From a virus (lineage: Duplodnaviria; Caudoviricetes), in IMG/VR virus record IMGVR_UViG_3300031867_000034, positions 1 through 64,000 of that record: a DNA stretch of 64,000 nt; one strand, 5' to 3'. The first letter of the stretch is position 1, and every line of letters begins with the position of its first letter. Shown piece by piece: positions 1 to 37,112 of this stretch. The notes beneath the pieces were generated by a model, which was not told where the DNA came from, did not search any database, and saw only the letters and a list, made by a program, of their open reading frames with translations. Position numbers and translations under genes: made by a program.

Positions 1-127
1 AGTTTAGACGAGGGGAATGAAAGATGGGAATGTCGATTGAGAAAGCAATAGAGATAATAAACCATTATTTAGATTATCCCAAAGAAGAAGTAAGAAAAGC
101 CTTATTAGTAGCAATAGAAATCATGCG
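1..127 (+). repeat. Exact 127-bp direct repeat, copy 1
   Basis: Base-by-base identical to 36347-36473; first mismatch at 128 (g) vs 36474 (c). Confidence 0.97.
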
Positions 128-260
128 GAAGTATCAGAAGATTGAACAGATATACAACTCATGGAGAACAGGCGATTATAAAGGTTCAAAAGAGTGTATG
201 GAAGATATGGGAGAGGTATTAGAAGATGGGAATAACACAACTAACCCAAAAAATAATTGA
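24..260 (+). CDS. Small mosaic-array hypothetical protein
   Basis: RBS GAGGGG; contains MRKYQKI and EVLEDGN linker motifs shared with ORFs at 36039 and 36370. Confidence 0.7.
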   Translation: MGMSIEKAIEIINHYLDYPKEEVRKALLVAIEIMRKYQKIEQIYNSWRTGDYKGSKECMEDMGEVLEDGNNTTNPKNN

Positions 261-438
261 ACGTGAATTTTGTCCTCGTTGTTTAAACTACATTGATAAA
301 CAGTATATATTCAGAGATTGTGAAAGTGGCATAACTATTACAATGGGAACAGTAAAAGATTGTAAATTTCATACTGATACAAGTTGGATATGTGATTTCA
401 AGGAGCAGGAAAATGGTAATGACAAGACAAAAGGCTGA
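226..438 (+). CDS. Small Cys-containing hypothetical protein
   Basis: CPRC motif; ATG lies inside the GAGGTATTAGAAGATGGGAATA linker. Confidence 0.6.
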   Translation: MGITQLTQKIIEREFCPRCLNYIDKQYIFRDCESGITITMGTVKDCKFHTDTSWICDFKEQENGNDKTKG

Positions 439-652
439 AACAATATTTGCCAATGTATTGACTGATGATACAGTTATTAAAGAGTTAAAAGAAGCACTGC
501 TGTTAGCCATTGAAGATATGCACAAGATGGCAGTGATTGAAGAAATTGTGAGGGTAGAAGATGAAAATAATGATTAGTGGAACATCACCCTACTCCATGA
601 ATGTGAAAATGATGATAGCAAGATATGTTCTGCGGAAAGTGAGAGGTAGAAA

Positions 653-1036
653 ATGGGAATGACGATTGAGCAAGCCGAAAAACTTCTTGATGATTTAGCA
701 ACACAGGAAGAACTTCTTTGTAAAAGAGCAGATGATGCAAGTGGTTATACAAGAAGTGGCAACGAAAGCATACGAACGAGTAATGCCAAGACGCACGAAC
801 AACATGTAAAGGAATACAGACAGATTCTTAGATATTTGGCAGAGTACCGATTGATGCAAGCCGACTACGAAAACCGCTTAAAGGCTGATATGGTGGCTAT
901 GCTTACAGAGATACAGTTGGAGATTGAGGGGCTTGAAGTCCCATTGTTATATCTTGCAGAAGATTACGAAGGTGGAGTATTAGATTGTAAAAAGATTATT
1001 CAACAGAAAATCAATGCATTGGAAGGAAAAACATAA
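653..1036 (+). CDS. Mosaic-array hypothetical protein
   Basis: RBS GAGAGGT; RLKADMVAMLTE(I/L)QLEIE block shared with 36572-36916. Confidence 0.7.
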   Translation: MGMTIEQAEKLLDDLATQEELLCKRADDASGYTRSGNESIRTSNAKTHEQHVKEYRQILRYLAEYRLMQADYENRLKADMVAMLTEIQLEIEGLEVPLLYLAEDYEGGVLDCKKIIQQKINALEGKT

Positions 1037-3516: not shown

Positions 3517-4095
3517 ATGATTGGAATATACGCTATCAAAAATAATGATAATGGAAAAATTTATATTGGACAAAGTAAGGATTTATCACATAGGAAATCC
3601 ACACATTTATATGATTTGAAAAATAACCGGCATCATAATGAAGTATTGCAAGCAGATTATAACAAGAATCCGGATGCTTTTGTTTTTGAAATATTATGTA
3701 AGTGTGGTGCAGATGATTTGGATGATTTAGAGAAGTATTATATTCAGAAATTCAAAAGCATTGATGCGAAGTATGGCTATAATTTAGATGGTGGCGGATT
3801 AAAAAATTTTACATGTTCGGAATCCACAAGAAAAAAGAGAAGTAATTTCCAAAAAGGCAACAAGAATATGCGTGGAGTTAAGCTATCTGAAGAATGGAAA
3901 AGGCATATATCCGAGGCAAACCAAAAGAAAAAAGTTATTTGCATTGAAACCGGTATTGTTTATAAAAGCTCCACAGAGGCGGCAAAACTAACCGGATTGC
4001 ACCGAACAAAGATTGTTTCCGTATGTACCGGCAACAGAAAAACAACCGGAGGTTATCATTTTAAATACTATGAACAAGAAAACATTGATAGATAA
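3517..4095 (+). CDS. GIY-YIG homing endonuclease with C-terminal NUMOD1-like HTH
   Basis: GIY(4)...YIGQS, conserved E, YNL; C-terminal VICIETGIVYKSSTEAA; overlaps the TerL start. Confidence 0.9.
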   Translation: MIGIYAIKNNDNGKIYIGQSKDLSHRKSTHLYDLKNNRHHNEVLQADYNKNPDAFVFEILCKCGADDLDDLEKYYIQKFKSIDAKYGYNLDGGGLKNFTCSESTRKKRSNFQKGNKNMRGVKLSEEWKRHISEANQKKKVICIETGIVYKSSTEAAKLTGLHRTKIVSVCTGNRKTTGGYHFKYYEQENIDR

Positions 4096-5341: not shown

Positions 5342-6781
5342 ATGAGGACATATCAAGATTTATTGGCATTAGGTGATAATGAATCCTTGAGGAAAGATTT
5401 TATCATTTCCGCTATTGCAGACCACAAGGCAACACCGGAATACAAGATTGCCAAAGATGCGGAAATGTATATGAAAACATTAAATCCTACGATAATGGAA
5501 TATAAAAAGCTATTATATACCATTACCGGTGAGGCGGTGCCGGATAACTTTAGTGCCAATCATAAATGTGCATCTTCATTCTTCAAAAGATTTGTTACCC
5601 AGGAAAACCAATATTTGCTTGGTAATGGTACAACTTTTGGAAATGATGCAACCAAGGAAAGATTAGGTGGAGAAGATTTTGATGTGCAATTGCAGAAAGT
5701 CGGAAGGGCGGCGCTTATTGGTGGTGTGGCTTTTGGCTTTGCTAACTTAGACCATATCGAAGTATTTAAGTACACAGAGTTTAAGCCATTATGGGATGAA
5801 GAGGATGGAGCATTAAAAGCCGGAATCCGTTATTGGCAAGTTGCTGATGATAAACCATTAAGGGCAACACTTTATGAACTTGATGGATATACGGAATATA
5901 TCAAGCACAAAGATGGTGAATTGGAAGTGCTGAAGGAGAAAAGACCATATCAACAGATTGTGGCAAAATCCGAAGTAGATGGCACCGAGATTCTTGATGG
6001 GCAGAATTATCCAACATTTCCAATTGTTCCTTTATGGGGCAATCCGGAACATCAATCCGAACTTGTAACCATCCGGAGCCAAATTGATGCATATGATTTA
6101 ATTAAATCCGGCTTTGCAAATGATTTAGATGATGCAAGTATGATTTATTGGACTATAACCAATGCCGGCGGAATGGATGATGTTGATTTGGCACAATTCC
6201 TGGAAAGAATGAAGGTTGTTAAAGCGGCTGTTGTTGGTGATGATGCAAGCGGAAATGCAAAGGCAGAGGCGCATACAATTGATGTTCCTTACCAAAGCCG
6301 TGAAGCATACCTTACAAGGCTTGAATCTGATATGTACAAAGATGCAATGGCTCTTGATACAACACAGATTGCCGCCGGGCAAGTAACAGCCACACAGATT
6401 GAAGCCGCTTATGAGCCACTAAATGAAAAAGTGGATATGTTTGAATATTGTGTATTAGAGTTTGTGCATGGCATCCTGGATGTTCTTGGAATTGATGATA
6501 CTGTTTCATTTGTTCGCTCAAAGATGGCAAACAAGGCGGAAGAAATAAATGCACTTCTTGCCGGTGCTGAATACTTAAGCCAGGAATACATCACAGAAAA
6601 ACTTCTTACAATCCTTGGCGATATTGATAAGGTTGAAGAGGTATTGAATCAGATTGCAGATGATTCCATGAGCCGCATGAGCGGTGGCAACAATGAAGAA
6701 AATCTTCAAGAAAGTGAAGAAAATCTTCAAGAAAGTGAAGAAAATCTTCAAGAAGAGGATATAAATAATGAAGTTGGATGA
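5342..6781 (+). CDS. Portal protein, SPP1 gp6-like
   Basis: 479 aa directly after TerL; NHK..SFFKRFV.Q..QYLLGNG N-terminal motif; acidic tail. Confidence 0.85.
   Translation: MRTYQDLLALGDNESLRKDFIISAIADHKATPEYKIAKDAEMYMKTLNPTIMEYKKLLYTITGEAVPDNFSANHKCASSFFKRFVTQENQYLLGNGTTFGNDATKERLGGEDFDVQLQKVGRAALIGGVAFGFANLDHIEVFKYTEFKPLWDEEDGALKAGIRYWQVADDKPLRATLYELDGYTEYIKHKDGELEVLKEKRPYQQIVAKSEVDGTEILDGQNYPTFPIVPLWGNPEHQSELVTIRSQIDAYDLIKSGFANDLDDASMIYWTITNAGGMDDVDLAQFLERMKVVKAAVVGDDASGNAKAEAHTIDVPYQSREAYLTRLESDMYKDAMALDTTQIAAGQVTATQIEAAYEPLNEKVDMFEYCVLEFVHGILDVLGIDDTVSFVRSKMANKAEEINALLAGAEYLSQEYITEKLLTILGDIDKVEEVLNQIADDSMSRMSGGNNEENLQESEENLQESEENLQEEDINNEVG
6695..6754 (+). repeat. 21-bp tandem repeat (EENLQES x~3) in portal C-terminus
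   Basis: gaagaaaatcttcaagaaagt x2 plus an 18-bp partial copy. Confidence 0.95.
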
Positions 6782-27196: not shown

Positions 27197-27249
27197 GAGG
27201 CTAGAAATAGCCTCCTTTTCTTTTTATTTAAAAATACATCAAATAATAG

Positions 27250-27278
27250 TTGACAATCCTATAAAAATAGTTTATATT
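27250..27278 (+). promoter_or_regulatory. Early sigma-A promoter P1
   Basis: TTGACA-17-TATATT; near-duplicate of 33008. Confidence 0.8.
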
Positions 27279-28148
27279 ATAATCAACAAATGATTTAGGA
27301 GGGCAACAAGATGAAGAGATATAGAGTAGAATTTGAATTTATGTATAGAGATCCGGAAATATCTGATGGCAAGTACCACATAGATTACTTGGATAACAAT
27401 GGTGAGGGATTCACATTACAAGAGGCGGAGGATGTTGCCAAGTTTGTGAGAGCAAGTGAAATTCTTTATATAAAGTGGGCTGAAGTGGTAGAAATGGAGG
27501 GATAACATGTTTTGGATATACGATACTAAGGAAAAGAGAACAGCAACAAGAACCGGATGGAGCATCAGATGCAATGCCGAAAGAGTATGCCAGGCAATGA
27601 ACATTAAGCATGAAGGCATTGAAGAAGTTGATAAGCCGGCAAATGAAAGAAGATTCATAATCAAGGAGGCATGAAATGAAAGTGGCTATTGTAAATCTTC
27701 ATGGAATAAAAGATGGCGATAAGGCATATTATAGGAAACTTGGGCTTTGCTATGATTTTGTATCTGATAAAACTATTTCCGGAACGGAATTGACCGAAGC
27801 GGAAGCCATTAATGTTTTGAATCATAAAGACTATTACTTGAAAATGTATGGTGCTGAAAAAATGGTGATTGAATCATAAGGAGGCATGAACATGGTAAGA
27901 ATGTATGGCAAATATAAGTGTTGTGAATGTGGTGAAATATTCCGGGAAAGTGAAATAAAGGTGGTGGAAGAGAACCGGGGAGAGTTTTGGGGATTCCCTT
28001 GCACCGAAAGAATGCATTATAGCCCTTGTTGCATGGCAAGTTTTGAAGAGGCTTATGAAGATGAAGAAGAATTGATTGATGAATAAATTTAAGGTTGTAC
28101 ATCATATCAATCAATAGTATAATAGGTGATAGGAAGGAGGCGAAACAC

Positions 28149-28337
28149 ATGGAATTAAAACAGTATTTAGAAGAACATGGAGTGAATCAGCAAGCACTTG
28201 CAAGGGAATTAAACATTTCCTACCAGGCTTTATATGTTAAGCTGAAGGGCAATGGCAATTTCTCAATCAAGCAAGCCTTGAAGATTAAAGATTTTCTTAG
28301 GCTAACATGGGATGAATTTGTTAAGTTTTTTGGTTGA
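28149..28337 (+). CDS. Cro/XRE-like HTH protein
   Basis: QQALARELNISYQALYVKLKG..FS HTH motif. Confidence 0.8.
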   Translation: MELKQYLEEHGVNQQALARELNISYQALYVKLKGNGNFSIKQALKIKDFLRLTWDEFVKFFG

Positions 28338-28353
28338 TATGGAAGGGGATTTC

Positions 28354-28971
28354 ATGAACGTATTTGAAACATTGAATAATGCCAATGTAAATGGGCATAC
28401 AGAAGAGAAAAACGGATTAACATATTTATCATGGGCTTGGGCTTGGGCTGAAGTAAAAAAGGCTTTTCCGGAGGCAAATTACACTATTGAGAAATTCAAT
28501 GGATTACCATATGTGTATGATGAAAACACCGGTTACATGGTTTATACAACAGTAACCATTGAGGGCATCACGCATGAAATGTGGTTGCCGGTTATGGATG
28601 GAGCCAACAAGGCTATGAAAGCAAAGCCATATACTTACACTGTAAAAAGGTATGGAAAAGAAGAAGCAAAAACAGTTGCCGCCGCAACAATGTTTGATGT
28701 AAACAAAGCCATTATGCGGTGCCTTGTAAAGAATCTTGCCATGTTTGGGCTTGGGCTTTATATATATGCCGGAGAAGATTTGCCGGAAGTGGAACAGAAT
28801 GCAAATCAAATGGCATATCCTTCCAAGGATGAAATGCTTAAAGAAGTATCAAAGAGTTATCCGGAAGGTTCCAAAAACCTTGCCGCCCTTCTTGGAACTT
28901 TTGGTGTGGATTCTTTGGATAAAGCAACTGATGAAATGTTAATGGCGGCATATAACAAGGTACATAAATAA
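28354..28971 (+). CDS. Sak-like single-strand annealing protein (DUF1071 / Rad52-like)
   Basis: KNGLTYLSWAWAW, MWLPVMD, RCLVKNLAMFGLGLYIYAGEDLP motifs. Confidence 0.88.
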   Translation: MNVFETLNNANVNGHTEEKNGLTYLSWAWAWAEVKKAFPEANYTIEKFNGLPYVYDENTGYMVYTTVTIEGITHEMWLPVMDGANKAMKAKPYTYTVKRYGKEEAKTVAAATMFDVNKAIMRCLVKNLAMFGLGLYIYAGEDLPEVEQNANQMAYPSKDEMLKEVSKSYPEGSKNLAALLGTFGVDSLDKATDEMLMAAYNKVHK

Positions 28972-29501
28972 TGGAAAAGATAACCGGAACCGCGCTTGAT
29001 ATAGTCACATTCTTAATGGGTGATAATGCTGATAAGAAGGCATTGTATGATTTATCCTTACATGAAGAAAAAAAGAAACGCTCTTTGGATTCTAACGCAT
29101 ATTTTCATGTGCTTGTTGCTAAATTAGCACAAGCACAGAATCCGCCCATAAGCAAAGCCAGGTGCAAAAATATGATGATTGCCGATTATGGGCAAGAAGA
29201 ATATATTGATGGGCAAATAGTAGTGCTTAAAAGCAATCTTCCGCCGGAAAAAATGTGCAATGTGGAATATTTGCATACATCATGTGTGAAGATTACGGAA
29301 GAAAATGGCAAGGAAGTGTACTTTTACAAGGTGTATCGAGGCACCCACACTTATGATACAAAGGAAATGGCAAAGCTGATTGATGGAACCATCCAGGAAT
29401 GTAAAAATGTGGGAATTGAAACAGCCACACCCAAACAGATTGAAGAAATGCAGAGGCTTTGGGAGCAACATTATTTGAATAAAAAGGAGAATAACAAATG
29501 A
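28971..29501 (+). CDS. NinB/Orf-like recombination protein
   Basis: RSLDSNAYFH and THTYDTKEMAKLIDG motifs. Confidence 0.7.
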   Translation: MEKITGTALDIVTFLMGDNADKKALYDLSLHEEKKKRSLDSNAYFHVLVAKLAQAQNPPISKARCKNMMIADYGQEEYIDGQIVVLKSNLPPEKMCNVEYLHTSCVKITEENGKEVYFYKVYRGTHTYDTKEMAKLIDGTIQECKNVGIETATPKQIEEMQRLWEQHYLNKKENNK

Positions 29502-32440: not shown

Positions 32441-33004
32441 ATGCAAAGAGAAGAGATTGCAAGTGTGCTTAATGTAATCCGTGATACATATGATGTGAAC
32501 TTTACGGAACTAACCATGGAAGTTTGGTTTAATGCTCTAAAAGAATTTGATTTTGAGGATGTAAAAAAGGCAACCTTCCAATATATCCGCACCGGAAAGT
32601 TTAAGCCAAAACCGGCAGATATTATAGAGTTGATTGTTGAGAATAAAGCCCCACAGATGCCGGAAGAAATGAGCGCACAAGAGGCATGGTCTTTAGTATA
32701 TAAGGCAATATGCAATAGTGCATATAATTCCATCCAAGAGTATGAGAAGTTGCCGGAAATGGCAAAAAAAGCCATTGGAAGTGCTGATAATCTAAGGAGC
32801 CATGCAATTGATGCGGATTTCAATATGGGTGTGGCACAAAGCCAATTTATAAAGGCGTACAACACTTTATTGGAGCGCAAGAAAAATGATTATGCCATGA
32901 GGCTTGAAGCTGTTAAGCGTGGTGATTTGTCTATTGAGCAATTAACCCAGGGTGTTATTGAGAAAATGGAAAATAAATTATTGTTAGAAGAAAATATAAA
33001 ATAA
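32441..33004 (+). CDS. Helicase loader/inhibitor-like protein
   Basis: W..AL.......V..A...YI..GKF.PKPADI motif; follows the initiator. Confidence 0.65.
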   Translation: MQREEIASVLNVIRDTYDVNFTELTMEVWFNALKEFDFEDVKKATFQYIRTGKFKPKPADIIELIVENKAPQMPEEMSAQEAWSLVYKAICNSAYNSIQEYEKLPEMAKKAIGSADNLRSHAIDADFNMGVAQSQFIKAYNTLLERKKNDYAMRLEAVKRGDLSIEQLTQGVIEKMENKLLLEENIK

Positions 33005-33007
33005 GTG

Positions 33008-33036
33008 TTGACAATCCTATAAATAAAGTTTATTAT
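33008..33036 (+). promoter_or_regulatory. Early sigma-A promoter P2
   Basis: TTGACA-17-TATTAT; shares TTGACAATCCTATAAA with P1. Confidence 0.8.
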
Positions 33037-33801
33037 AATATCAACAAGTAATTTATAGGAGGTATAAACATGGAACTTTTAGAATTATGGGATTTATCAA
33101 GAGTACCGCTTTTTGATATGGATGCACCTGGATTTTATGAATTGGCAAGGCTTGAAGCATTTGATAAGGATATATGCAAGATTCCGGGATATATGCCAAT
33201 TGAAACAGTTTTAAAGTATAAGGATGCAGAGGTTGAAGAAATTTCATGGCATAATTGCGGCATAGCGGTTAGATTTTACAAGGGTGATGAAGATGAAGCA
33301 TAACATGATTAAAAGGGGCATTACAATCAAAAATAAAAAGGGATTATACATTGTTGCTGATGTCGATACAATAGATGGCTTTGCCATCATCCGAGAGATT
33401 ATGAGAAATAAAAAGGGTGAGATATTTTATGGCAAGAATATCTTCATAGGCTTAAAGCAATTGGATGATTATGTGGTTGTATAAGGAGGGCGAAAATGTT
33501 TGATAAGCAAGAAAAATTAGTGGAGTTTTTTGAAAAGCATGGCATTGAATGCAAATGGATAAACCATGATAAGTACGGATTCAGCCGGCGTTTAATATTC
33601 ACGGCAAAAGATGCGGTATGTGAAATTGAGTGGTTTACCAATTATTCAACAATAATCCTGGATGGTGTGGCACATTATTGGTTCGATAAGATTGATGATT
33701 CAAACACATATCCATGTGAAGGTGATTGGCTTGAATTTAAATTTGGCAATGAAGAGCATGGGTTACATGTAAGGGTTAAATAAAATCCGGAGGGCGGAGA
33801 A

Positions 33802-35044: not shown

Positions 35045-35107
35045 GTGAAAATAATTTATTTAATATTATTGGGGATTTTGATTTGGCTTTATAGCCGGGA
35101 TTATTAG
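35045..35107 (+). CDS. 20-aa hydrophobic peptide (candidate)
   Basis: GTG start, MKIIYLILLGILIWLYSRDY; purine-rich AAAGGTTGGA upstream. Confidence 0.35.
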   Translation: MKIIYLILLGILIWLYSRDY

Positions 35108-35117
35108 GAGGATTCTA

Positions 35118-35738
35118 ATGGGAATGACAAGAGAACAGATATTAGAGATTCTTGAAAACTATAAATTGCGCATACCGCCAACAGTTTTCTATGAATTAAA
35201 GGCAGATATTGTGAATTTTGAAGAGCCAACTACTAAGAATAATTTAGCGGTTGATTGTATGTCAAGCAAGATTGCAAAAGAAATGAATCTTGAAGTTGCA
35301 AACATGAAGAAAATTGTGCAAGCCTTATCCTCAGTAACGTCAACAAATAGAGAGTGCGTTGATTGTATATCAAGGGCAGATGCTTTGCGTGTGGCTAAAA
35401 ATGAATATTTAAGAGGTTGGCATAATGCACTTTGCAAGGCATTGAGTGAAAAATATTCAATTCATTGTGAAGAAGGCAATTTTAGCGTAATACAAGAAGA
35501 AACTATAACAGGGTTAGGACTATCAATGAATTGTGCATTAGGTAAAGATGCTGAAAGCTATATGAGCACTATGCCCTCAGTAACACCACAAGAGCCAAAG
35601 ACAAGGCATTGGATAAAAATCAAACCATATCCTTTACAGATGCACAACTACGAATGTAGTGAGTGTGGTCATGAAACAGATGATAATACAGAAAACTATT
35701 GTAGCGAATGCGGGGCAAAAATGGAAAGCGAGGGATAA
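35118..35738 (+). CDS. Multi-module mosaic protein with C-terminal Zn ribbon
   Basis: Internal repeated VDC(M/I)S and SVT linkers; CSECG..YCSECGAKME. Confidence 0.75.
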   Translation: MGMTREQILEILENYKLRIPPTVFYELKADIVNFEEPTTKNNLAVDCMSSKIAKEMNLEVANMKKIVQALSSVTSTNRECVDCISRADALRVAKNEYLRGWHNALCKALSEKYSIHCEEGNFSVIQEETITGLGLSMNCALGKDAESYMSTMPSVTPQEPKTRHWIKIKPYPLQMHNYECSECGHETDDNTENYCSECGAKMESEG

Positions 35739-36038
35739 ATATGGCAACATATGAAATCACAGCAGAATTGAATCTGAAAAAGATTATTGCAGAATCAAGG
35801 GAAGTTGCACAAGCCTTAAATGAGTTTGCGGATAATCTTGAACGGATTGAAAAGAAGTATGCAAAGCCACAGGAAAGTGAGGCAGACAATGGGAATAACA
35901 ATCAACATAACTGAGGGCATCAACGACTATGAATTTTATAATGTGCCGAAAAAAGTAGCAAAAGCAATAATTACACTTCTACATGAGTGTGAGAAGGAAG
36001 ATAGCACTATTGTTTCAGCTATCAGTGAGAGGTAGAAG

Positions 36039-36281
36039 ATGAAAATGACGATTGAAGAAAGTCTTGAATGGCTTATATCAAGAAAAGAACACTATGAAAT
36101 GGATGATAATTGTCAAGAATTAGCGAAAGCCTTAGATATAGCTATAGATACCATGCGTAAGTATCAGAAGATAAGAGAAATAGCTTTTCCATTACAGTTT
36201 TGTTCAACAGACAAACTTGAGCATGAAGCTATTATGAAAATATGTGAGGTATTAGAAGATGGGAATAGTAATTGCACATAG
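36039..36281 (+). CDS. Mosaic-array hypothetical protein
   Basis: MRKYQKI and EVLEDGN linkers. Confidence 0.7.
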   Translation: MKMTIEESLEWLISRKEHYEMDDNCQELAKALDIAIDTMRKYQKIREIAFPLQFCSTDKLEHEAIMKICEVLEDGNSNCT

Positions 36282-36346
36282 GCGTTGTCCTAAATGTGGT
36301 TGTAAATGTTTTAGAAATATGAATAGGTGTTGGCATTGTGGATATA

Positions 36347-36473
36347 AGTTTAGACGAGGGGAATGAAAGATGGGAATGTCGATTGAGAAAGCAATAGAGA
36401 TAATAAACCATTATTTAGATTATCCCAAAGAAGAAGTAAGAAAAGCCTTATTAGTAGCAATAGAAATCATGCG
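36347..36473 (+). repeat. Exact 127-bp direct repeat, copy 2
   Basis: Identical to 1-127. Confidence 0.97.
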
Positions 36474-36585
36474 CAAGTATCAGAAGATAGTCGATATAGT
36501 TTCCTTGAATGATGAAGAATTTAAACAATGTGGGTTAAAGGAATTAAAGGAAATATTGGAGGTTATAGCTGATGGTAGGAATTAA
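36370..36585 (+). CDS. Mosaic-array protein sharing its N-terminal half with ORF 24-260
   Basis: Identical up to MRKYQKI, then unrelated. Confidence 0.7.
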   Translation: MGMSIEKAIEIINHYLDYPKEEVRKALLVAIEIMRKYQKIVDIVSLNDEEFKQCGLKELKEILEVIADGRN

Positions 36586-36916
36586 AAACTTTGTAATGCC
36601 ATATAATTGCTATGATTGTGACCTACACAATTATCATGAGTGTGATTTTACAGGAGAGTCAATAGAAGAGGATTATTGTTGGAACGGAGATAGCAGAGAA
36701 AAGCATTGTCCTCTTAGAGAAGTAGAAGCAATTCCAAAAGACCAATACGAAGCAAGATTAAAGGCTGATATGGTGGCTATGCTTACAGAGTTACAGTTGG
36801 AGATTGAGGAATTAGATACACCGAATAATGGTAGTGCCTATATGGATTGTTCAGAGATTATCCAACAGAAAATAGACAGTTTGAAAGGGGCAGACAATGA
36901 CAGTAAAAGATCTTAA
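36572..36916 (+). CDS. Mosaic-array protein sharing its C-terminal module with ORF 653-1036
   Basis: CYDC...HCPL N-terminus plus RLKADMVAMLTELQLEIE. Confidence 0.7.
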   Translation: MVGIKNFVMPYNCYDCDLHNYHECDFTGESIEEDYCWNGDSREKHCPLREVEAIPKDQYEARLKADMVAMLTELQLEIEELDTPNNGSAYMDCSEIIQQKIDSLKGADNDSKRS

Positions 36917-37112
36917 AGAGCAGTTAAACAATTATCCTGATAATTTGGAAGTAATACTCACAAATGATGATGTTTTTCTGCCAGGGTTATACAAGGCAAC
37001 CGAAACAAGGCAAGAAGACGGATATTTGTATATTGATACGGATTTTGAAGAGAGGATTTAACATGAAGCATTAAATTTGTCCAGGAAGTCCGACTTCCGG
37101 TTAAAAAAAATA

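Follow-up and report, generated by a model that had tools for sequence, protein, structure and literature searches.

Ever since the modular theory of phage evolution, it has been debated whether the mosaic genomes of phages arise via special linker sequences or via random illegitimate joins that are subsequently sorted by selection. Here, we analyze a stretch of phage DNA that bears on this question, the first 64 kilobases (64,000 nucleotides (nt); hereafter the window) of a single virus record of 79,797 base pairs (bp) in IMG/VR (IMGVR_UViG_3300031867_000034). Bases 1–1036 belong to an accessory array of a phage and form its downstream part; the genes of this array are small and overlap, and short sequence blocks recur in it. 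Comparisons with related sequences lend good support to the view that these blocks are conserved joints, where ruminant-gut phages swap whole small genes and gene halves, and that the array would be a clear natural example of linker-guided gene shuffling. The joints are of three kinds, a gene boundary that is read in two frames (linker 1) and two stretches that encode conserved helix segments, with the motifs MRKYQKI (linker 2) and LKADMVAML (linker 3). The whole record, referred to as the contig in the following, most likely combines two phages, which we call phage 1 and phage 2.

Several described systems resemble this arrangement. In the promoter-early stem-loop (PeSL) cassettes of the hyperplastic regions of T4-type phages (Arbiol et al., 2010, PMC2839356; Comeau et al., 2014, PMC4122927), short conserved sequences, there of a regulatory kind, likewise flank small genes of unknown function, which homologous recombination inserts, deletes and swaps without a dedicated integrase. 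In our arrays, too, genes are gained, lost and replaced between related phages at a conserved motif. However, a PeSL is an intergenic promoter plus terminator, whereas the joint at our gene boundaries is a coding overlap that holds ribosome-binding site, start codon and upstream stop codon in two frames. Moreover, our joints are also found inside genes, and the phages in question are ruminant-gut phages of about 36–44 kilobases rather than T4-type phages. PeSL-type promoter/terminator cassettes were rejected because promoter-like sites in the arrays are no more frequent than expected (7 found versus 7.0) and because the gene boundaries, which leave no intergenic space, carry no terminator stem-loops; two terminator-like matches lie elsewhere.

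The PeSL authors themselves liken their arrangement to integrons (PMC2839356), and an initial, sequence-only reading of our stretch had done the same, proposing an integron-like library within a single genome. The likeness lies in small, promoterless genes on the same strand that come and go at a recurring boundary sequence, but it is an analogy only. Our genes overlap, while those of integrons are separated by the recombination sites, and no attC-like inverted repeats were found at the gene boundaries of 1–1400 and 35100–37100. A search of the whole contig with PF00589 gave one match (contig 64891–65358, minus strand), a phage-type integrase of 363 amino acids (aa) that belongs to phage 2 and lies kilobases away from the arrays. 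An integron in the proper sense (IntI, attI/attC) was rejected on these grounds, and a single-genome integron-like library is not supported. A diversity-generating retroelement was rejected as well, given that the contig has no RVT_1 match and that the variable modules, with 31–85 aa, are of unequal length and unalignable.

Joints inside genes have a counterpart in gp38, the tail-fibre adhesin of T-even phages, in which conserved glycine-rich motifs part hypervariable segments and recombination between the motifs swaps these segments (Trojet et al., 2011, PMC3157838; Tetart et al., 1998, cited there). In our genes, motifs separate variable segments in the same manner. Yet the variable segments of gp38, an adhesin of the virion, are known to act in host range, whereas we are dealing with helical proteins of about 75–130 aa and unknown function, with variable modules that differ in length and cannot be aligned. 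Finally, the relaxed homologous recombination of diverged substrates by phage Rad52-like annealing proteins is a described source of mosaicism (De Paepe et al., 2014, PMC3945230; for Sak and Sak4, Neamah et al., 2017, PMC5499656). As in the published mosaics, where an identical segment is flanked by short, partly conserved sequence, our contig has an identical segment of 585 bp that begins with a ATGGGAAT start and is followed by 14 identical bases past one mismatch; furthermore, both phages encode a single-strand annealing protein. The published work, however, concerns generic exchanges between phages and defective prophages, without dedicated recurring joints or a combinatorial protein family.

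The sequence-only reading started from four short repeats, all of which are real and exceed the expectation from dinucleotide-preserving shuffles. The 20-mer ATGCGNAAGTATCAGAAGAT, which comprises the MRKYQKI codons, has copies at 123, 36153 and 36469 (three seen, 0.04 expected), a 22-mer has copies at 213 and 36246 (0.00 expected), a 32-nt block with a ribosome-binding site and a start codon has copies at 638 and 36024 (0.00 expected), and 878–929 matches 36758–36809 in 51 of 52 bases. The largest repeat had not been reported: 1–142 agrees with 36347–36488 in 141 of 142 bases, 1–127 being identical to 36347–36473, followed by a mismatch at 128 and another 14 identical bases, so that the copies of the 20-mer at 123 and 36469 are parts of one long repeat. 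As had been read from the sequence, the 22-mer encodes the EVLEDGN end of two open reading frames (ORFs), ORF 24-260 and ORF 36039-36281, and also starts the next ORF (MGI...) in the +1 frame, at 226; the copy at 36246 does so as well, at 36259. The blocks had been described as lying between otherwise unrelated sequences, which is true for some of them only: ORF 24-260 and ORF 36039-36281 are paralogous over their whole length (40% identity, E = 3e-12), and the blocks at 638 and 878 are embedded in homologies that extend further but are weaker (584–669, 76% identity; 858–929, 88% identity). Nor are the blocks arbitrary microhomologies; they consist of a translation-initiation/stop overlap and of two conserved helix segments of real protein families.

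Linker 1 is a cassette of about 27 nt with the consensus GGAGGTAGAAGATGGGAATGACGATTGA. In it, a spacer of 6 nt separates a canonical GGAGG from the ATG, and the stop codon of the upstream gene follows 14 nt further on. In the upstream frame, GAAGATGGGAATGACGATTGA reads E-D-G-N-D-D-stop, and in the +1 frame M-G-M-T-I-E/D, i.e. the ATG and the first five codons of the downstream gene; the same DNA thus serves as the C-terminal motif of one gene and as the N-terminal motif of the next. An 18-mer from this linker matched 22 IMG/VR stretches, every one of them at a gene boundary, and arrays with the 18-mer also occur in metagenome-assembled genomes from the rumen and in the isolate genome of Butyrivibrio sp. 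INlla21. Scanning the genome collection yielded 43 matches, of which most are due to chance (they fall within long genes of high-GC taxa, where no array is present) and only the loci L031, L044, L046, L049 and L055 were kept. The exact 22-mer of 213/36246 has no copy in IMG/VR, where only its core is present. At 41 non-redundant boundaries, the cassette joins genes from 26 upstream and 22 downstream clusters without mutual similarity, among them membrane peptides, zinc ribbons and a 416-aa ORF; the overlap between the genes is 17 nt in 27 of these boundaries. The array genes overlap by 14–35 nt. One example is a 48-aa gene, located at 35889–36035, that has different upstream and downstream neighbours at almost every locus carrying it. 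Frame and start/stop overlap are retained by construction, in agreement with the earlier proposal that frame and translational coupling are kept.

Linker 2 lies within a family of proteins of about 75 aa, for which an exhaustive profile search (E <= 1e-3) found 654 representatives at 50% identity. In IMG/VR, 14 contigs contain the 20-mer, which in each of them encodes MRKYQKI in a protein of 70–110 aa that starts with MGMTI(D/E) and ends with ...E(V/I)xEDGN(D/N)D. Family members in the window are ORF 24-260, ORF 36039-36281, ORF 36370-36585 and, in degenerate form, ORF 413-577. A structural model of ORF 36039-36281 (predicted local distance difference test (pLDDT) score of 82) is a three-helix bundle with MRKYQKI in the middle of the long helix 2, and the sequences on either side of this point assort independently. 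Among 120 homologues of this protein, one N-half (79–95% identical) is joined to 27 C-half clusters, and one C-half (about 70–90% identity) to 31 N-half clusters of 31–85 aa. More broadly, 141 motif-bearing representatives (<=50% identity) fall into 94 N-half and 75 C-half clusters, of which 31 and 32, respectively, have at least two partners. Combinations also link the proteins of the window with each other: the N-half of ORF 36039-36281 also occurs joined to the C-half of ORF 36370-36585, its C-half also occurs joined to the N-half of ORF 653-1036, and N-halves of the MRKYQKI family are fused to the LKADMVAML domain.

The conservation of linker 2 extends to the nucleotide level. In 12 family members from loci that had been fetched without reference to this linker, the synonymous sites of K-Y-Q-K-I are nearly fixed, with AAG in 21 of 22 cases (background 0.42), TAT in 11 of 11 (0.68), CAG in 12 of 12 (0.46) and ATA in 10 of 12 (0.40), and the motif arginine is always CGY (6/6). 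At the same time, position 2 of the motif is variable (R, H, K, Q, C or D), and the alignment shows no variation in M, Y, Q and I. This pattern fits a linker that is identical by descent and was spread by recombination, or selection on the DNA itself, but not amino-acid constraint alone. One may nevertheless ask whether the joints are conserved for molecular function only, linker 1 as an initiation and coupling cassette and the helix-core motifs for binding a conserved partner, with recombination as an unselected by-product. The canonical initiation signals and stop codon of linker 1 and the four invariant residues of the motif speak for this view. Still, function alone leaves unexplained why synonymous positions are fixed next to a freely varying second residue, and why unrelated proteins should need an EDGNDD tail. 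We regard this account as improbable; it differs from our own only in what is selected, not in what happens.

Linker 3 is an island of 67–72 nt that encodes a conserved helix segment of the C-domain common to ORF 653-1036 and ORF 36572-36916. The model of ORF 653-1036 consists of long helices (pLDDT 91). Of its 120 best homologues, 65 share the C-domain only, joined to more than 12 N-modules, and 4 share the N-half only. As a separate observation, the segment between ...LQLEIEE and C..IIQQKI of this domain (900–1000 and 36810–36860) exists in at least five discrete, unalignable versions among the homologues, so that modules vary at a third level, too. In public metagenomes, the modules flanking each of the three linkers assort independently. 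The earlier suggestion that the linkers are joints between independently assorting modules is borne out by the cluster combinations at the gene boundary and at MRKYQKI, and across genomes the linkers are not always flanked by the same modules.

One case of sharing comes from the contig itself, whose first 127 bases are identical to 36347–36473 and whose last 127 bases (L001:15671–15797, where L001 denotes the contig beyond the window) are identical to 35889–36015. Both ends are thus copies from one internal segment of 585 bp, 35889–36473. Overlaps of one k-mer length at both ends onto one internal segment would be expected from a two-loop (figure-8) de Bruijn assembly graph. In addition, the contig carries two complete and unrelated sets of genes for large terminase, portal, major head protein and recombinase. 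Those of phage 1 comprise the large terminase (phrog_38), portal (phrog_64), head protein (phrog_544), Sak, NinB/Orf and a DnaD-like loader, those of phage 2 the large terminase (phrog_2), portal (phrog_156), head protein (phrog_371), Sak4 (phrog_2872, E = 1e-75), a primase/helicase and the lone tyrosine integrase. Because of the end copies and the two gene sets, the contig most likely represents two circular phage genomes assembled together through the common segment, phage 1 with 36,346 bp (bases 128–36473) and phage 2 with 43,782 bp (bases 36474–79670 plus the common segment). The array at 1–1036 therefore continues the 35118–36473 array of phage 1, while 36474–37061 ends the array of phage 2, and the left and right arrays, previously compared as parts of one genome, probably belong to two different phages. 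In terms of data quality, this means that an IMG/VR record listed as linear and scored 100% complete is probably two genomes.

The common segment is a cassette, with linker 1 as its left and linker 2 as its right boundary. Identity starts exactly at the ATG at 35889, a junction-type start (ATGGGAAT common to both contexts), and the upstream sequence differs between the two. At the right edge, a single mismatch is followed by 14 more identical bases within the MRKYQKI codons, after which all similarity is gone. That two otherwise unrelated phages have this cassette in common indicates a recent exchange; a double exchange at the joints would be expected to leave such a pattern. Alternatively, the contig could be one real replicon of about 80 kilobases, a co-integrate of two phages or a pair of tandem prophages, in which the 585-bp segment would form a direct repeat and both arrays would lie in one genome. 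The assembly path indeed crosses the segment from phage 1 into phage 2, but such a molecule would exceed the genome of either phage (36.3 and 43.8 kilobases), it would have two full, unrelated gene sets for packaging, head and recombination, and it has no host flank. Moreover, the exact 127-nt end overlaps fit the figure-8 graph whichever pairing is real. We consider a single replicon about as improbable as conservation for function alone.

Plain paralogy would be a simpler account of the arrays, which would then consist of diverged duplicates of a few small genes, with the linkers as their best-conserved motifs and no exchange taking place there. ORF 24-260 and ORF 36039-36281 are such paralogues over their full length, and the motifs are situated at structurally sensible places, namely at the beginning of helix 1, midway along helix 2 and where helix 3 ends. 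Paralogy alone is contradicted, however, by halves that are 80–95% identical but joined to unalignable partners of different length, with discordant similarities of N- and C-halves; by the single boundary cassette that joins unrelated genes; and by the near-fixed synonymous sites of linker 2, which together make it very improbable. Least probable of all is an assembly artefact, in which the mosaics here and in databases would be chimeras formed where assemblers collapse short common sequences: although this contig itself ends at graph junctions and the homologues come mostly from short metagenome contigs, the linkers (15–72 nt) should be shorter than typical reads and are shorter than the 127-nt end overlaps, an isolate genome (L055) has a junction array as well, several of the mosaic proteins were assembled repeatedly, on up to 9 contigs of different origin, and a de Bruijn branch still needs both continuations in the reads.

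Where the exchanges took place can be approached through the endpoints of similarity. In a first test, restricted to islands defined by BLAST, 13 of 38 endpoints lay in islands; this test was weak and blind to gene-boundary joints, which are too short for a significant alignment. After annotated gene starts had been added to the islands, the ends of long nucleotide alignments of the arrays with related loci formed 22 clusters, of which 17 fell into linker zones. These zones make up 21% of the arrays (P = 3e-8), but the result is partly circular, as the islands were defined from the same BLAST output. Several further points weigh against our interpretation as well. Gene boundaries are the expected ends of gene-sized modules under any mechanism, and the ordinary functions of the joints, translation start and stop and helix cores, make selection for recombination unnecessary to explain their conservation. 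The sequences in the codon test are phylogenetically non-independent. The evidence for exchange is comparative, and the comparison sequences are mostly metagenome assemblies, so that some mosaics could be chimeras, a concern eased by the observations just given. Sak and Sak4 were sought in the related loci, where a Sak homologue was found in only two within the fetched flanks, which are too short for a conclusion. Weighing all this, we assign a probability of roughly 70% to the explanation as a whole, i.e. three kinds of conserved joint, modules exchanged by homologous recombination within them, and a cassette recently exchanged between two phages.

In related phages and prophages of the ruminant gut, the same joints are found between different modules, which argues that modules are exchanged by homologous recombination at these islands; recombination of this kind at short conserved stretches is the most economical mechanism and fits best. 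It would start in the conserved islands of 27–72 nt and exchange whole genes, N-halves or C-halves, with frame and translational coupling automatically kept. The reaction may be catalyzed by the phages' own annealing proteins, Sak in phage 1, whose presence had been noted in the sequence-only reading and is confirmed here, and Sak4 in phage 2. The resulting diversification of array proteins could benefit the phage, for example if they act as host-interaction or counter-defence factors.

Table 1. Joints, array genes and recombination genes of the window
Position	Strand	Feature	Details
1–142	+	Contig start	Copy of the cassette end, 36347–36488
24–260	+	ORF 24-260	78-aa MRKYQKI family member; N-half identical to that of ORF 36370-36585, C-half different
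110–152	+	Linker 2	Conserved nucleotide island around the MRKYQKI codons (123–142), common to at least 6 related loci
213–240	+	Linker 1 variant	Ribosome-binding site, EVLEDGN end of ORF 24-260 and MGI start of ORF 226-438 in the +1 frame; 35-nt overlap
226–438	+	ORF 226-438	70-aa Cys-rich small ORF without family match
413–577	+	ORF 413-577	54-aa degenerate MRKYQKI family member (motif MHKMAVI), ending ...VEDENND at a decayed junction
578–649	+	Startless remnant	3' end of a homologue of the 48-aa gene at 35889–36035; read directly from the sequence, by repeat homology
638–673	+	Linker 1	Ribosome-binding site, ATG and MGMTIE codons; island common to at least 6 loci
653–1036	+	ORF 653-1036	127-aa all-helical protein; N-module plus LKADMVAML...IIQQKI C-domain
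858–929	+	Linker 3	Island encoding the LKADMVAML helix segment, including the 52-bp block
28312–28971	+	Sak-like (Rad52-type) single-strand annealing protein	Phage 1; phrog_659, E = 6e-64
28971–29501		NinB/Orf-like mediator	Phage 1; directly after Sak
35889–36473	+	585-bp cassette common to both phages	48-aa gene, 80-aa MRKYQKI family member, 35-aa zinc ribbon, N-half of the next family member
36039–36281	+	ORF 36039-36281	80-aa MRKYQKI family member; predicted three-helix bundle
36370–36585	+	ORF 36370-36585	71-aa MRKYQKI family member; N-half as in ORF 24-260, C-half different
36572–36916	+	ORF 36572-36916	114-aa protein; Cys-rich N-module plus LKADMVAML C-domain
36746–36811	+	Linker 3	Island in ORF 36572-36916

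The array that includes 1–1036 is located between the replication/recombination genes and a block of tRNA, homing-endonuclease and terminase genes (Table 1). None of ten array proteins has a Pfam match above the cut-off or an informative PHROG, Foldseek searches of PDB and BFVD with the models of ORF 36039-36281 and ORF 653-1036 gave no hit at E <= 0.001, a feature search of the Atlas yielded unnamed clusters only, and the DNA of neither array matched any of 50,697 GenBank phage records. The N-module of ORF 653-1036 is elsewhere joined to C-halves of the MRKYQKI family. At the decayed junction, a 33-aa ORF (561–662) begins and overlaps the remnant at 578–649 out of frame; this region resembles what a deletion or unequal exchange would leave behind. 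Zinc-ribbon proteins are encoded in the arrays at 35118–35738 and L001:13498–13986. Further nucleotide islands common to at least six related loci lie inside other array genes, for example those for zinc ribbons (35221–35266 and 35572–35615; contig 77634–77681, 77972–77998 and 78793–78810), so the linker pattern is not confined to the three joints studied.

Several other features were noted along the way. The heptamer AGAAGAT occurs at 129–142, within linker 2, at 222–228 and also at 647–653, in the spacer between ribosome-binding site and ATG, which may be coincidence. A gene for a free-standing homing endonuclease of the GIY-YIG/HNH type (3517–4095) overlaps the start of the large terminase gene of phage 1, and an HNH-type ORF (L001:14261–14776), recognized by reading its sequence, is a candidate of the same kind inside the small-gene array of phage 2. 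A direct repeat of 68 nt (27230–27297 and 32988–33055, 79% identity) can be read as a TTGACA box followed by a TATAAT-like box and is probably a repeated early promoter of phage 1. Finally, a 21-nt unit is present three times in tandem at the 3' end of the portal gene (6694–6773).

These results define a new family of small phage proteins, the 654 representatives of which have no Pfam or PHROG entry. They also provide a defined test case for the linker hypothesis, in which the joints are short, countable and conserved at the nucleotide level, natural combinations number in the hundreds and one cassette is common to two unrelated phages. A bolder possibility, which we consider rather unlikely but put forward tentatively, is that the joints are kept as recombination signals and not just as a by-product of function. 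The dual-coding boundary and the two helix segments would then be fixed down to their synonymous sites so that annealing proteins can reassort two- and three-module helical proteins and neighbouring genes between co-infecting, even unrelated phages. If true, the phages would have an in-frame, recombinase-light cassette system for generating diverse proteins, plausibly with functions in host interaction or counter-defence.

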